IMG/VR virus record: IMGVR_UViG_3300037086_000458
Span: 22,090-86,089 of that record
Strand: one strand, 5' to 3'
Length of the DNA: 64,000 nucleotides
Origin: a virus
Each line of letters begins with the position of its first letter. Position 1 is the first letter of the stretch. The notes beneath the pieces were generated by a model. That model was given only the letters and a program-made list of their open reading frames with translations. It was not told the origin of the DNA and searched no databases. A program made the position numbers and the translations under genes. Shown piece by piece: positions 2,558 through 20,302 of the stretch.

Positions 2558-2844
2558 TATATTTTTTTCTCTTTATTGATTTTTTGAAGTTTTCTACCAC
2601 AATGAGGACAGTATTTAAAACCAACTTCAATGAAACCTTCACGGATATGCGGTCGATCACACTCATTACATATTATTACTTTTGAGTTACTTTCTTTTAA
2701 TTGGGCCTCAATTAATAACTTTGAGTCCCTTTCTTTTAATAGTTTCCAAAATTGTTTGCATCGTTTGTCATTTGGTTGGACTTTGAGACTGCAAATAAAA
2801 CCTATTAAACAATTATTGCATTTTACGGATAAAAGATTAGACAT
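2557..2844 (-). CDS. small Zn-ribbon protein
   Basis: CNNC, CNEC, FKYCPHCG. Confidence 0.55.
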   Translation of the reverse strand: MSNLLSVKCNNCLIGFICSLKVQPNDKRCKQFWKLLKERDSKLLIEAQLKESNSKVIICNECDRPHIREGFIEVGFKYCPHCGRKLQKINKEKKI

Positions 2845-2910
2845 ATAAATCCTTAATATAGGTATTAATATTTTATTTTTTAAAAATGCTGTGTCTCGCT
2901 GTTAAATTAT

Positions 2911-3505: not shown

Positions 3506-4672
3506 TTAATTTGATTTTTGGCGTATCTTTGAATAGGCCCCTACACCTACTGTCATATATTTTATATCTTTTTTTTCTTCTTTTACTGATTCAATAACTT
3601 TAAAGAAAGATCCCGATGTGTTAATATAAATGTTTATGCTATCAGTTATAAAAGAAGAAATTTCTGTAATAAATAATTTATAATCCAATATGTGTTTTAT
3701 TTCTTCTGTTGAGTCATCGTTGACCCTTTTACAGTTAATTCTTTCTTTTGCTTTTAAATTAGATAGCAGAGCTATATCTAAAAAGGAATTATCCCCAGCC
3801 CCAGATAATACTATTTCTATACCCGCTCCTATCATGGTTGCTCTTGTGGACCCCAACCTATTAAGCTTTTTTACTAACTCGATACGATTTATCTCTGTAA
3901 AAGGTCCGTCTTTCTTAAGATAACTGAGATCCATCTTGGGGGCTTCAACAGCCGATTTTAGACAACTAAAATAGGTGCTAAGATTATCAGTGCGTATAAC
4001 CACATCATTATCTGATTCCCCTAGGATTAAAGTATCTTCGGGTATTTTTTCTAAAACTGATATAAAAAGTGGGGTTGCATTTTTTCTTATTTTTATATTA
4101 TTTATGCCTCTGAAATTAGGAGCAACAAAATACCCCATTTTATTTAATCCGTTTGCAGAAAAAATAACGCCATTGTTTATAATTACAAAGTCAAATTTTT
4201 TATTTTCTTCATTGGCGGCTTCAAGATATTTTACAGAGAATTTTAAGGATGCTAATAAAACCTCTCTGCTAATTGTGTGCGTGATATTAAGAGCTTTATC
4301 AACATTACTTACGGTAAGCATTTTATCTGGCGGGAACGATTGTAATGTATTAAAAGACTGCTCATCCACTGTAGTGAATACCTTTAAAGTAAGGTTACTC
4401 TGATCAAACTCCATTTTAACGGTATCACTATCAATCTTCGTTAAAAGCTTATCCAACATCTTAGGATCGGCTGTAAAGGAGCATTCTGTGTCACACTCAA
4501 TTACAGGGATAACACTCTGGGCTTTTAGGTCATTGTTAGTCCCTGAAATTTTCATTTCAGTTTTTGTTACTTTAAAAAGTAAATGCCCTCTTTCAACTTG
4601 TATTACAGCTTTAGAAAGAGCTTTAGAAGATATGGCTATAGCTTCTTTTAATTTATCCTTGGATATTTTCAT
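3506..4672 (-). CDS. dnaN: DNA polymerase III beta sliding clamp-like protein
   Basis: 388 aa; N-terminus MKISKDKLKEAI...ISGTNNDL resembles DnaN; three-domain periodicity; clamp loader genes in window. Confidence 0.75.
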   Translation of the reverse strand: MKISKDKLKEAIAISSKALSKAVIQVERGHLLFKVTKTEMKISGTNNDLKAQSVIPVIECDTECSFTADPKMLDKLLTKIDSDTVKMEFDQSNLTLKVFTTVDEQSFNTLQSFPPDKMLTVSNVDKALNITHTISREVLLASLKFSVKYLEAANEENKKFDFVIINNGVIFSANGLNKMGYFVAPNFRGINNIKIRKNATPLFISVLEKIPEDTLILGESDNDVVIRTDNLSTYFSCLKSAVEAPKMDLSYLKKDGPFTEINRIELVKKLNRLGSTRATMIGAGIEIVLSGAGDNSFLDIALLSNLKAKERINCKRVNDDSTEEIKHILDYKLFITEISSFITDSINIYINTSGSFFKVIESVKEEKKDIKYMTVGVGAYSKIRQKSN

Positions 4673-16383: not shown

Positions 16384-16716
16384 TTAATTTCCATCAAATA
16401 GCTTCTTTTTCTTTAAAAGCTCACTTAATATTATATTAGTGGTTCCTGAGATAACTTTGAAATCCTCATAAATATCCGTAATAAAAGCTGAAATTTTAGC
16501 TTTTTCTAATAAAGCTCTTTTAATAGAATTATCCTTGGAGTCCGTAATTGAATTTATAATGTCTGATAATTCTCTTAGGACTCTTGTATTATAATTCATC
16601 TTTTTTTGGAGGATTTCTTGAATATCTTTAGTAATTCCCTCAATAGAGAAAGTCATAGCCATATTCTTGAAGATTTGCTCATTTTTTTCTTCATCAGGCA
16701 GTTTGTTAGAATTCAT
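16384..16716 (-). CDS. hypothetical protein
   Basis: 110 aa, AAGGA RBS. Confidence 0.6.
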   Translation of the reverse strand: MNSNKLPDEEKNEQIFKNMAMTFSIEGITKDIQEILQKKMNYNTRVLRELSDIINSITDSKDNSIKRALLEKAKISAFITDIYEDFKVISGTTNIILSELLKKKKLFDGN

Positions 16717-16837
16717 AACATCCTTTCTTTCACTGATAAATATAAATACTCCGATTTTTGTTTTTAAAGTAGATTCTTCTTTTTCTTTAATTATTATATA
16801 TTATTTATTATCTTTTATTATTAACGTAGTTAATAGA

Positions 16838-16900
16838 AAAGCAATAGATATAGTAATGGTTATATATTCAGATTAAGTTTAAGAAAAAGGTATTTTAAAA
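16838..16900. repeat. 63-bp direct repeat, copy 1
   Basis: AAAGCAATAGATATAGTAATGGTTATATATTCAGATTAAGTTTAAGAAAAAGGTATTTTAAAA; 62/63 identical to 17643-17705. Confidence 0.95.
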
Positions 16901-16956
16901 TTTTCCTTTAATTTTAAATATTCTTAATCTTATATTTAAATATCAAAAGGAGACTT

Positions 16957-17331
16957 ATGAAGATTGTTACTGTAATTTCTCCGGATAAATTAAGTATGAC
17001 TATGTTCTATGACTTTTATAAATCCGTCTATGTAGGGGATGGGTCTTTATCTGTTTTAGATATAAATTGTTTATTTTCTAAAGAAGTTCAGAATGCTAAG
17101 ACCAGAGAATTTATAAAGGCTAATGAGAATTCAGAGAATATTTTGATTAAATATAAGATTAAACTTAAAACAGTATTATCATTACCGGCTGAAATTGAGC
17201 AGAATTCTGATTATATAATTAAATTTGATATGTTTTCCAATCATCCTGAGCTCTTAAAAGATAAGGATGAAAAAGGAAAAGCTATGATCGAGAGATATAT
17301 TTTAAACGTTACGAACATGAACAAAGGTTAA
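16957..17331 (+). CDS. hypothetical protein
   Basis: 124 aa, AAGGAG RBS, first gene of the plus arm. Confidence 0.7.
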   Translation: MKIVTVISPDKLSMTMFYDFYKSVYVGDGSLSVLDINCLFSKEVQNAKTREFIKANENSENILIKYKIKLKTVLSLPAEIEQNSDYIIKFDMFSNHPELLKDKDEKGKAMIERYILNVTNMNKG

Positions 17332-17339
17332 AGGAGGTA

Positions 17340-17630
17340 TCTGGCAATATTATCTGCTGTAGCTTATAAGGAACCTCTTATTCGGGATAAGCAGTGGAGA
17401 TCGTAACCCGACTGACCATGGTGGCCTTAATAACGTTCCCCAAGCGGCTATAGTGCTTTTAATGAGGTTTCTTGAAATCTCTCTTGAGTGCCTCACCCTG
17501 GAATAAGTGATGAGGGTAGATTCACCTTGAAATAGCCAAGCTATCCCCCTACACTAGCGAGTAGGGGAGTAAGGCGCTAAGATTATGATTATCAATAAAT
17601 AAATGATCTTAGCTTAAACAAATGTTTAAA
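17340..17630 (+). ncRNA. candidate structured non-coding RNA (family unknown)
   Basis: ORF-free, GC-richer, at least six nested or adjacent stems with G-U pairs on the plus strand. Confidence 0.5.
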
Positions 17631-17642
17631 ATCACCATCGAC

Positions 17643-17705
17643 AAAGCAATAGATTTAGTAATGGTTATATATTCAGATTAAGTTTAAGAAAAAGGTATTT
17701 TAAAA
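17643..17705. repeat. 63-bp direct repeat, copy 2
   Basis: one mismatch versus 16838-16900. Confidence 0.95.
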
Positions 17706-17938
17706 ATTCTGTCTCTCTCTTTGAGGGGCATAAAAATTTATTTTTTAAGATGGAACTAGAGCATCCCTAATGTGTTATATAAGTTACCACACTTCAACAG
17801 TGGCGAGAGTGACCGTTCCATCCATTAATTTATAATAAAGATTCTAAAGAAGGTTAGCATGACTTTTGTTGGGTTATAAAAGTGGTGGCTATAGTTGCTG
17901 GATAAGCTACCTTGGTGTAGATAAGAAGAAGGTTTAAA

Positions 17939-18382
17939 ATGGTAAAAAATTATACATCTACCGTTGCTGCTTCTCGATCTGTTCAACATATAGAAGAGAG
18001 ATTAGTTGAGCACGGAGCAATGAACATTCTTAAACTCTACGAAGATAAACATCTTGTTGGGATCGCATTTATTCTTGATAATAATGGTGAGCAGCTTCCT
18101 TTCCGACTCCCCGCTAGAATAAGCAATGTTGAGAAACAACTTAAATCCGAAGTCAAACGCCCACGTAAGAGTACATTCAATAACATTAAAGAACAAGCAG
18201 AACGAACAGCTTGGAAGCTACTTTCTGATTGGGTGGACATACAATGTAGCCTTGTGGAACTACAACAGGTAAAATTTATGGAAGTGTTTTTGCCATATGT
18301 TTATGATCCTGTTAAAAAACAAACTTTTTTTGAAAAGTTAGAAGAAACAGGATTTAAACAGCTATCTTTTAAGAAAGAGTAA
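17939..18382 (+). CDS. phage hypothetical protein
   Basis: 147 aa, AWKLLSDWV...VFLPY. Confidence 0.65.
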   Translation: MVKNYTSTVAASRSVQHIEERLVEHGAMNILKLYEDKHLVGIAFILDNNGEQLPFRLPARISNVEKQLKSEVKRPRKSTFNNIKEQAERTAWKLLSDWVDIQCSLVELQQVKFMEVFLPYVYDPVKKQTFFEKLEETGFKQLSFKKE

Positions 18383-18384
18383 GA

Positions 18385-19386
18385 ATGTTTTTTCAAAAAA
18401 TAAAAGGCCATGAGGAATTATTAAATGAATTTAAAGAATGGCTTCTTAATGATAAGTTTGAGGGTGTTTATTTATTTGAAGGCCCAAAAGGTGTAGGTAA
18501 ATATTCTATAGCTAAAACCCTCGCAAAATATATAGTGTGCCCCGGGGTTAAGGATGATTCCTGCAACTGCGAAAATTGTAAGTTATTCCCAGCTATCCCT
18601 GATTATATAGAAATATCTTCAGATGAAGAAAGCGTAATCAAAGTATCTGACATAGAAGCCATCGAAGAATTTGTAACTTTAATGCCTTTCAGAGGCAAAA
18701 ATAAAGTTATTCTGATAGATGATGCAGAGAGATTAAATAATTCCTCAGCGAGCCAACTGCTAAAGACCCTCGAAGATTTAAAAAGCCATGTAATAATTTT
18801 TTTAATCTCAAGCTACCCGGAGAGAATAATACCGACCGTGTTATCGAGGTCGAAGAGGATTGCTTTTAAGCAGCTCCATCAGGATATCCTCTTAGAGCTA
18901 TTAAAAGAAAAAAATATTAATGTAAAGAACATCGAGGAACTTAATAGAATAATCCCTTTTCTATCTAAGAGTATACTTGCAAATTATCCTATTTACTCTA
19001 AACAGATATTATTTGTTCAGGATTTTTTGTTGAACTTCAGTAAAAGGGAAGAGGATGAAATACTCTCAATAATAAATGATATAGACATAGAAGGTGAGCT
19101 TGTCTATTTTCTGGAGATATTACTCATTTATGTTTGTGACATTCTAAAGATACATTTTGATGATAATAATATAATTTTCAATGAAGGAAACAATGCAGTC
19201 TTGGATAGAATGACTATAGGATGGAAGAGTGATATCTGTGTAGCTATGCTTGAGAAAATCAGACCTATTATAAAGGATTACAAAAAAGGTATCAATATTA
19301 AACTTAAGCCCAGGATAGCGTCTTTGATGTCTTGGATATTTTTAATGCTTAAGAAAGAAAAGAAAGACACTTTAAATGCTGGATAG
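18385..19386 (+). CDS. holB: DNA polymerase III delta-prime (clamp loader)
   Basis: YLFEGPKGVGK, CxCxxC, KVILIDDAERLN, LLKTLE, IPTVLSR. Confidence 0.88.
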   Translation: MFFQKIKGHEELLNEFKEWLLNDKFEGVYLFEGPKGVGKYSIAKTLAKYIVCPGVKDDSCNCENCKLFPAIPDYIEISSDEESVIKVSDIEAIEEFVTLMPFRGKNKVILIDDAERLNNSSASQLLKTLEDLKSHVIIFLISSYPERIIPTVLSRSKRIAFKQLHQDILLELLKEKNINVKNIEELNRIIPFLSKSILANYPIYSKQILFVQDFLLNFSKREEDEILSIINDIDIEGELVYFLEILLIYVCDILKIHFDDNNIIFNEGNNAVLDRMTIGWKSDICVAMLEKIRPIIKDYKKGINIKLKPRIASLMSWIFLMLKKEKKDTLNAG

Positions 19387-20302
19387 AACTTCAATAAAGA
19401 AAAATAAGAAATTTTTGATTAATTGTTCTGATTCCTATATGGCGAATGTGTTTATTGAGGAATGTAAAACAATTTATAGTGATTATACAGTAAAAATGTG
19501 TTTTAACGCCCAGGAATTTATTGAAGAGCTGAATGGCGGGTTTTTGTTTAATTCAGATAAGAAAATTTTAGCATTGATGAATTTTTCCGATGAGAACATA
19601 CAGGATATAGAACCATTTCTGGACTATGAGACTGAAGATATTATAATTTTGGTCGAGCATAGCGCCATTAAAAAGAATAAAGCTTATATTAAAATAAAAA
19701 GCGATTATGCTTATCAAAAACTTGAAGACATGTCCGAGAAAGAGTGTAGGAGTTGGTTACATACATTTATGGTTAAGGTGGATCTTAAATTCCAGCCAGA
19801 GATACCATCTTTTATAATTAGTAGGAGGGGTAAGGACCCAAGAGCTCTTACAAATGAAGTTAAAAAATTAAAATATTTAAATAAGGAAGTTACTGAATCG
19901 TTGTGCTCAGCAATAGTGTGTGAATCATATGATTCAAATTTTTTTGAGCTTATGGATCATTTTTCGCACAGAAGATCGGAACAATGCTTAAAAGAATTTA
20001 ATAAAGTAGATGAATCAAAGTATATACAGCTATTGCATTTCATAATAGGGCAATTCGAAAAATTGTACAAAGTTACTATCTATAAAGAGCAGAAAAAGTC
20101 AGCCGAGGAGATATCAGATATAATAGGAGTCCCAAAATTCATAGTACAAACGAAGCTATATACAGCTATAAGTATTTTTAACAAGGTTAAAATTTTGAAA
20201 GTTATTGATTTATTAAATGACCTTGATGTACAATTAAGGTTGTCAAAATATAGTAATAAGCTTATATTTGAGTCATATATACTGAAGATATTCAATTTAT
20301 GA
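19376..20302 (+). CDS. holA: DNA polymerase III delta (clamp loader)
   Basis: LTNEVKKL, NFFELMD, GVPKF, DLDVQLR resemble HolA; adjacent to holB. Confidence 0.7.
   Translation: MLDRTSIKKNKKFLINCSDSYMANVFIEECKTIYSDYTVKMCFNAQEFIEELNGGFLFNSDKKILALMNFSDENIQDIEPFLDYETEDIIILVEHSAIKKNKAYIKIKSDYAYQKLEDMSEKECRSWLHTFMVKVDLKFQPEIPSFIISRRGKDPRALTNEVKKLKYLNKEVTESLCSAIVCESYDSNFFELMDHFSHRRSEQCLKEFNKVDESKYIQLLHFIIGQFEKLYKVTIYKEQKKSAEEISDIIGVPKFIVQTKLYTAISIFNKVKILKVIDLLNDLDVQLRLSKYSNKLIFESYILKIFNL

Follow-up and report, generated by a model that had tools for sequence, protein, structure and literature searches.

Comparative genomics of IMG/VR has yielded more than 10,000 candidate structured phage RNAs (PMC10690425), and structured RNAs have also been the subject of Weinberg-type motif surveys (PMC2864571, PMC5737381). 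The element described here resembles the surveyed phage candidates in being a GC-rich intergenic island which combines conservation and a shared fold and has no assigned function. However, it could be mapped to none of the published motifs; Rfam 15, which holds the curated ones, gave no match, and the element is represented by two sequences.

Like bacterial small RNAs derived from 3' UTRs, the element follows directly on a stop codon, has no evident promoter of its own and possesses a conserved terminal stem-loop, but it is much larger (about 280 nt) and carries no U-tail. ColE1 RNA II and the origin transcripts of T7 and T4 are the models for RNAs that act as primers or form R-loops. The likeness to primers of the RNA II type and to phage origin transcripts lies in a putative structured transcript situated in a replication region near an AT-rich gap. 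In contrast to RNA II, the element has no known RNA-DNA hybrid site, no antisense counterpart comparable to RNA I and no mapped origin, and the sequences show no similarity. The pRNA of phi29 is a phage-encoded structured RNA of 120-170 nt which serves as a protein-docking scaffold. The element differs from it in belonging to a replication module, not a packaging module, and it found no match in Rfam, which should include a pRNA model. HEARO (IscB omega) RNA (RF02033) is likewise a multi-helix RNA of about 200 nt and is carried by the same phage genome, but it has no sequence in common with the candidate, which has no IscB or TnpB gene adjacent to it.

The DNA analysed here (the window) comprises 64,000 nt, corresponding to bases 22090-86089 of an 86-kb IMG/VR virus record (G000). 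CheckV estimated the completeness of the record at 18%, which implies a phage of several hundred kb with a genome of roughly 480 kb. Pieces with at least 99% identity to positions 16700-18400 of the window were found in peat, permafrost, freshwater and bioreactor metagenomes (17 studies, 20 runs), and the phage lineage has a wide geographical range. The locus of the candidate RNA, whose ten neighbouring ORFs were scanned against Pfam, is a replication module (Table 1). A first-pass annotation of the sequence had placed the RNA at the strand switch. The switch, however, is a divergent 240-nt gap (16717-16956) with a G+C content of 0.15-0.25, about 400 nt upstream of the candidate, which itself sits in a 607-nt gap (17332-17938) with a plus-strand gene on either side, ORF124 and ORF147. 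The GC-richer, ORF-free stretch noticed in that annotation is real (17330-17629): its G+C content is 0.44-0.47 as against 0.15-0.30 in the flanks, and the gap contains no ORF of at least 60 aa. The sole ORF with a start codon inside the stretch, 48 aa on the minus strand, had no match in a collection of 5.8 billion proteins. The candidate is present as a single copy in the 86-kb record, and the covariance model R1 detected no second copy in the record or in any locus (best other match 11.7 bits, E 0.16).

ORF124 has ten homologues with 54-99% identity in the same protein collection and is without a Pfam or PHROG family. Its AF2 model (pLDDT 91) showed a P-loop/RecA-like core devoid of a Walker A motif, and the structural matches were generic (best Z 8.3). 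At the position of the P-loop Walker A motif, ORF124 and its ten homologues keep the sequence SPDKLSMT. Judging from the model, ORF124 may be a nucleotide-binding fold that lost the Walker A motif. Since its charge is near-neutral and its fold that of a generic NTPase, no RNA-binding partner is evident, and ORF124 was dropped as a candidate for this role, the P-loop/RecA-like core having given no informative structural match.

A metagenome scan with the ORF124 alignment returned a single relative, contig L004, whose gene order is the same as that of the window on both sides. Protein identities between the two are 66% for ORF124, 69% for the Tpt1-like protein and 74% for the clamp loader. Over an alignment of 381 nt, L004 3625-3998 and window 17330-17690 share 70.9% identity (E 6e-37). 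L004 also has a repeat on either side of the cassette, and the order repeat, ORF, RNA, hairpin, repeat is an architecture common to both phages. From repeat copy 2 to the clamp loader the two sequences are unrelated. L004 contains an extra gene, ORF91, between its ORF124 homologue and the RNA; this gene is absent from the window and is an orphan for which no homologue was found. In L004 3001-3663 the ORF124 homologue (126 aa) and ORF91 lie in one frame with one TAA and two codons between them, and the last five codons and the stop of ORF91 overlap the 5' strand of the main helix of the RNA, P1.

RNA-motif scans of IMG/VR contigs gave either nothing or a chance match inside an 845-aa ORF (L010). 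Scans of IMG/VR contigs with ORF147, the clamp loader and the ORF124 alignment revealed no relative of the phage; the ORF147 scan found only the unrelated contig L003, which bears an ORF147 homologue. A motif scan of GTDB genomes returned only Bacteroidales tRNA-Lys loci and one coding region, approximately the number expected by chance. Among GenBank phages there was no DNA match and no match to ORF124, and matches to the clamp loader had at most 31% identity.

Two observations were made on the gene 3' of the candidate. ORF147 is 82% identical to the protein encoded on L003 (3001-3471), a phage contig of about 50% G+C. The syntenic L004 lacks it, and the corresponding slot, immediately 3' of repeat copy 2 (L004 4005-4568), is occupied by a 336-nt GC-rich stretch and a 75-aa ORF. 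The 336-nt stretch has a folding z of -3.64, with 0 of 100 shuffles as good, and matched nothing in Rfam. It would appear that the slot holds variable cargo.

The comparison with L004 showed the candidate to be non-coding, to lie on the plus strand, to be subject to purifying selection and to have kept its fold. In the four flanking genes the proportion of differing sites is 0.53-0.55 at third and 0.12-0.21 at second codon positions, and neutral sites are near saturation between the two phages. In the one stop-free frame of the RNA, codon positions 1, 2 and 3 differ at 0.19, 0.26 and 0.32, so that there is no codon periodicity, and overall the RNA has diverged half as much as third positions in the neighbouring genes. 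The indels between the two RNAs (2, 10, 1 and 2 nt) are not multiples of three. Divergence is 11% in paired columns, 37% in the unpaired core and 69% in the variable part; positions 17516-17573 are only about 40% identical to L004, which is the level of a random alignment.

Table 1. Features of the candidate RNA and its surroundings (positions in the window; pairing strands separated by a slash)
Feature	Position	Strand	Description
Left flank		minus	RecD2-type helicase, 80-aa ORF, Tpt1-like ORF, 110-aa ORF
Right flank		plus	ORF124, candidate RNA, ORF147, two clamp-loader-type genes, primase, clamp-loader/tau-like gene, 5'-3' exonuclease
Palindrome TTAACGTAGTTAA	16821-16833		upstream of repeat copy 1; comparable to TTAAACAAATGTTTAA
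Promoter-like direct repeat, copy 1	16838-16903	plus	66 nt, about 54 nt upstream of the ORF124 start codon
ORF124	16957-17331	plus	gene directly upstream of the RNA
SD-like AAAGGAGGTA	17330-17339	plus	5' edge of the conserved block; identical in L004; homology begins here
Domain 1	17355-17455	plus	101-nt irregular hairpin of six helices; 30/30 pairs canonical in both sequences
P1	17355-64/17446-55	plus	UGCUGUAGCU with GGCUAUAGUG; encloses five further helices
P2	17370-74/17435-39	plus	
P3	17379-82/17429-32	plus	
P4	17384-86/17425-27	plus	
P5	17391-92 + 17394-97 with 17416-19 + 17421-22	plus	
P6	17398-99/17412-13	plus	
P8	17464-17481	plus	small hairpin GAGGUUU/AAAUCUC; in both sequences
P9/P10 hairpin	17484-17530	plus	P9 is the outer helix, 17484-90/17523-30
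P10	17491-95/17511-15	plus	CCUCA/UGAGG, invariant; conserved 15-nt loop with CUGGAAUAAGU
Lineage-specific hairpin	17545-17567	plus	CCCCCUAC/GUAGGGG; about 40% identity, 2/7 pairs kept in L004
Conserved 3' stem-loop	17576-17613	plus	GCUAAGAUUAU/AUGAUCUUAGC; six basal pairs invariant
Palindrome TTAAACAAATGTTTAA	17614-17629	plus	first 11 bases identical in L004, 17 with the adjoining stem bases
Promoter-like direct repeat, copy 2	17643-17708	plus	closes the cassette of ORF124 and RNA
ORF147	17939-18382	plus	next gene 3' of the candidate RNA

When each sequence was folded separately, both MFE folds showed the same architecture for domain 1, and RNAalifold recovered the same long hairpin. With the pairs placed on the MAFFT alignment without realignment, all 44 modelled pairs were canonical in both sequences, while only 27-52% could pair when the 3' partners were slid by 1-3 columns. 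Covariation, here a comparison of two sequences, was found in domain 1 in the form of four two-sided (compensatory) changes, two of them in P1, one in P2 and one in P5; two further changes are one-sided, between G-C and G-U. A test that involves no selection of helices consisted in shuffling the alignment columns within conservation classes and refolding them. None of 300 shuffles was as good as the core (alifold z -3.4), domain 1 (-4.0) or the whole element (-4.4); for domain 2 alone (-1.9), 14 of 300 were. In a simulation ten random substitutions in paired columns left all pairs intact in 1.5e-5 of trials, but this figure is inflated, and the true one weaker, since the helices were picked after both sequences had been seen. 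The covariation shuffle control gave 41 of 500, the floor with two sequences being about 1 in 16. When all helices that both sequences retain were listed exhaustively, P1 ranked first as the best supported (10 bp, four supported pairs), whereas 4-bp helices with apparent covariation are common noise elsewhere in the alignment. G-U pairs, of which P1 contains four in the window and three in L004, argue for the plus strand, as had been proposed in the first-pass annotation.

The internal loops of domain 1 (UAUAA/CCAAGC and a GA bulge) are invariant and its tip is variable. P8 has a one-base bulge in L004 where the window has a G-U pair, and shows no covariation. P9 is formed in both sequences with a shifted register. 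The upper part of the conserved 3' stem-loop differs in L004 yet pairs there (ACC/GGU, with a 2-nt bulge). No ORF was present behind the SD-like AAAGGAGGTA, and neither a start codon nor a frame is conserved downstream of it between the window and L004.

On comparative evidence the element is more than chance; on single-sequence thermodynamics it is not. The whole 291 nt folded with a z of -2.09 on the plus strand (6 of 200 shuffles as good) and of -1.62 on the minus strand. It is the two 3' hairpins that produce this modest signal, the z of the conserved core (17352-17530) being +0.21 and that of its counterpart in L004 -0.72. Taken alone, a core z of about 0, that is an energy no better than that of shuffles, would speak against a structured RNA in the terms of the first-pass annotation, but the element passes comparative tests where single-sequence folding would have failed. 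It displays non-coding conservation together with a covarying shared fold, as conserved structured ncRNAs generally do, in the two sequences known. The earlier reading as a novel phage ncRNA gains from the conservation, the lack of a coding signature, the shared fold with its compensatory changes and the lack of an Rfam family. It is weakened by the energy of the core, by a proposed architecture that was right only in part and by the location off the strand switch.

Known families offered no counterpart. Rfam 15 had no match in the window at gathering thresholds and none to the RNA alone at E <= 10 in either phage, and when the scan was widened to 751 nt, the sole matches were three rows at chance level, all in the AT-rich flank. 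The families without a match included riboswitches, RNase P, SRP, 6S, ribozymes, T-box, pRNA and GOLLD/ROOL, among others. In agreement with the absence of tRNA and tmRNA hallmarks noted earlier, ARAGORN found neither in the window. Look-alikes of CCCCAAGCGG in bacterial genomes turned out to be the T-arm and acceptor of Bacteroidales tRNA-Lys, and nothing else is common to them and the candidate. Retron msr/msd RNAs and DRT-type ncRNAs were discarded because Pfam scans found no RVT domain in the ten neighbouring ORFs. The HEARO model RF02033 matched not the candidate, whose neighbours are ORF124, ORF147 and a clamp loader, but a site outside the window.

That site is worth recording in its own right. 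A full-length HEARO RNA (102.7 bits) is located at G000 19730-19952 on the minus strand, about 2.1 kb before the start of the window, with a 366-aa ORF directly downstream. Another RNA of the same record was matched by the Rfam tRNA model (G000 2766-2865, minus strand, 100 nt, 49.8 bits); it is a tRNA with an insertion, at which ARAGORN was silent.

The element of about 280 bases, from a huge uncultured peat phage, is probably a genuine ncRNA whose family has yet to be described, as far as comparison of the two sequences can tell. We give about an even chance to the view that 17330-17613 is a plus-strand structured ncRNA which forms the 3' part of the ORF124 transcript, is stable, acts in trans and is shared within a small clade of huge phages that are uncultured and come from peat and freshwater. 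The layout, in which a repeat is followed by ORF124, the RNA, a stem-loop and a second repeat, suggests that the RNA is the tail of the ORF124 transcript, and ORF124 is probably co-transcribed with it. The two repeat copies are 97% identical to each other, bracket ORF124 and the candidate and occur nowhere else in the 86 kb. In L004 the copies (about 2880-2930 and 3949-4000) are identical over about 52 nt. Identity is thus 97-100% within each phage as against about 75% between the phages, which indicates that the copies are homogenised or constrained to stay alike. We infer that the repeat functions as a promoter. A short palindrome was noticed just upstream of each copy (TTAACGTAGTTAA and TTAAACAAATGTTTAA).

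The transcription and processing of the RNA, its partner and its function we infer as follows. Repeat copy 1, as a putative promoter, would start the first rightward transcript of the replication module, which would comprise ORF124 and then the RNA as its 3' part. The stem-loop at 17576-17613 would end or insulate this transcript, so placing the RNA end at 17613, and copy 2 would restart transcription for the downstream genes. The RNA, whose predicted core consists of the 101-nt six-helix hairpin followed by two smaller hairpins, one of them with the conserved 15-nt loop, would be cut from the 3' UTR and work in trans. The stem-loop is likely to be the 3' end of the transcript or an insulator. 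It was not flagged by a terminator scan because no T-run follows it; nor was a promoter or processing site located for the RNA. One metatranscriptome had sequence words in common with the locus; it yielded only a 151-nt contig inside ORF147, covering 18107-18256, and contigs cannot show absence. The four runs examined gave identical low-coverage pieces and short AT-rich junk, none of which covered the RNA. From its invariant unpaired bases and the ordinary stability of its fold, the RNA may be a platform on which a protein or a second nucleic acid docks, and it is this interpretation that favours a stable trans-acting RNA. RNA-RNA duplexes with 101 translation-start regions were also considered and dropped, as they gave only unrealistic duplexes with long loops.

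The stems listed in the first-pass annotation are all present in the window, and their conservation in L004 bears on a different explanation. Two of them, AAGGAACCTC/GAGGTTTCTT (9 of 10 pairs) and GTGGCC/GGCTAT (6 of 6), are well kept, as is the base of the 3' hairpin GCTAAGATTAT/ATGATCTTAGC (six basal pairs), the upper stem of which re-pairs differently. The outer pair GTAGCTT/AAGCTAT retains 5 of 7 pairs, but AATCT/AGATT retains only 1 of 5 and CCCCTAC/GTAGGGG, which lies within the unconserved part, 2 of 7. The multi-stem architecture thus stands for some of its stems but not for the 5' half, where both MFEs and RNAalifold choose the one long hairpin UGCUGUAGCU/GGCUAUAGUG instead. The two well-kept stems are mutually exclusive with P1 and P2. 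In both phages the energy of a fold that contains them exceeds the MFE by only 1-5 kcal/mol, and a C-to-G change at 17374 is matched by a G-to-C change at both alternative partners, 17435 and 17467. From these pairings the RNA may be bistable.

It is conceivable, if unlikely, that the element is a cis-acting bistable RNA switch, an attenuator or insulator in which AAGGAAC pairs either with GUUCC in the long hairpin or with GGUUUCUU in the multi-branch fold. Such a switch would, with the same low likelihood, control whether the RNA is read through, stabilised or processed at the 3' stem-loop, and thereby how much transcription from the ORF124 unit arrives at the replication genes. The retention of two folds of similar energy in both phages and the double match of position 17374 are consistent with this, although one doubly matched column among two sequences may be coincidence. 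In L004 the end of ORF91 overlaps the 5' strand of P1, so that translation could toggle the fold, but ORF91 is an orphan and absent from the window. Attenuators and riboswitches under the control of an intrinsic terminator consist of an aptamer and, 3' of it, a terminator hairpin with a U-run, placed directly upstream of the gene that they regulate. Measured against these, the locus has a conserved hairpin 3' of the element as well as the two kept folds, but the hairpin lacks a U-run, and the promoter-like repeat copy 2 lies between the RNA and the downstream genes, which therefore seem to have their own start. Decidedly doubtful is the wider proposal of a new class of bistable RNA which would toggle between two conserved folds in the start or control of replication, for instance by giving rise to a primer or an R-loop or by timing the replication operon, in a huge-phage lineage without a cultured member.

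An improbable explanation is that of an origin-associated element, either a structured primer precursor or R-loop former, or a displaced plus DNA strand that folds into a priming signal. It would fit the replication module, with RecD2, clamp-loader subunits, primase and 5'-3' exonuclease nearby, the gap of 18% G+C 0.4 kb upstream, and the minimum of the cumulative GC skew of the 86-kb record about 2 kb upstream. The skew minimum, however, coincides with the switch in gene orientation and so is not independent evidence, and transcription would lead away from the AT-rich gap. The cassette is flanked by direct repeats, but these number only two and form no iteron array. Frequent G-U pairs would poorly suit a DNA hairpin, and no initiator gene was identified. 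The support is thus positional, with nothing specific to an origin.

One further likeness to origins concerns the lineage-specific hairpin. Its sole motif shared with L004 is the CUAGCG loop (17553-17558; about 3869-3874 in L004). The single-strand origin ssoA of rolling-circle replicons is a long imperfect hairpin with the CS-6 sequence (TAGCGT/A) in its terminal loop and an RS_B site. The CUAGCG loop may recall CS-6, a resemblance that would count in favour of an origin.

Conservation at the DNA level, with protein-binding or promoter sequences retained and the pairings fortuitous, is very improbable. An example would be a sigma-70-like promoter driving the 3' half only, and a scan did find the promoter-like TTAATA, 16 nt, TATAGT at 17427-17454, with TTAATA, 16 nt, TACAAT in L004. 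Promoter-like matches in the region are, however, no commoner than in shuffles (10 found, 7.3 +/- 2.7 expected), and the two changes in the putative -10 box are exactly matched on the other strand of P1, one being compensatory and one G-U/G-C. The ordinary fold energy of the core and its long invariant unpaired runs would agree with DNA-level conservation, but the shared fold beats all column shuffles. A decayed or unconventional coding region (a pseudogene, a recoded gene or a read-through extension of ORF124) is hardly credible, for although a stop-free plus frame (17363-17506) encodes a peptide 55% identical to that of the L004 frame and indels in the hairpin tip amount to a net 12 nt, the frame has no start codon and no third-position excess, is ended as a shared frame by a 1-nt indel at 17504 and differs between the phages relative to ORF124, while the sole start-codon ORF, on the minus strand, is absent from the protein collection.

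For the putative structured RNA at the end of the ORF124 transcript, the practical value is limited for now, as the family has two members and no cultured host, and thousands of comparable phage RNA candidates have already been catalogued. Huge phages contain much unexplained non-coding sequence. If the reading is true, a sizeable conserved RNA heading the replication module would provide a handle on the timing or start of DNA synthesis, or on dealings with the host, in these phages.
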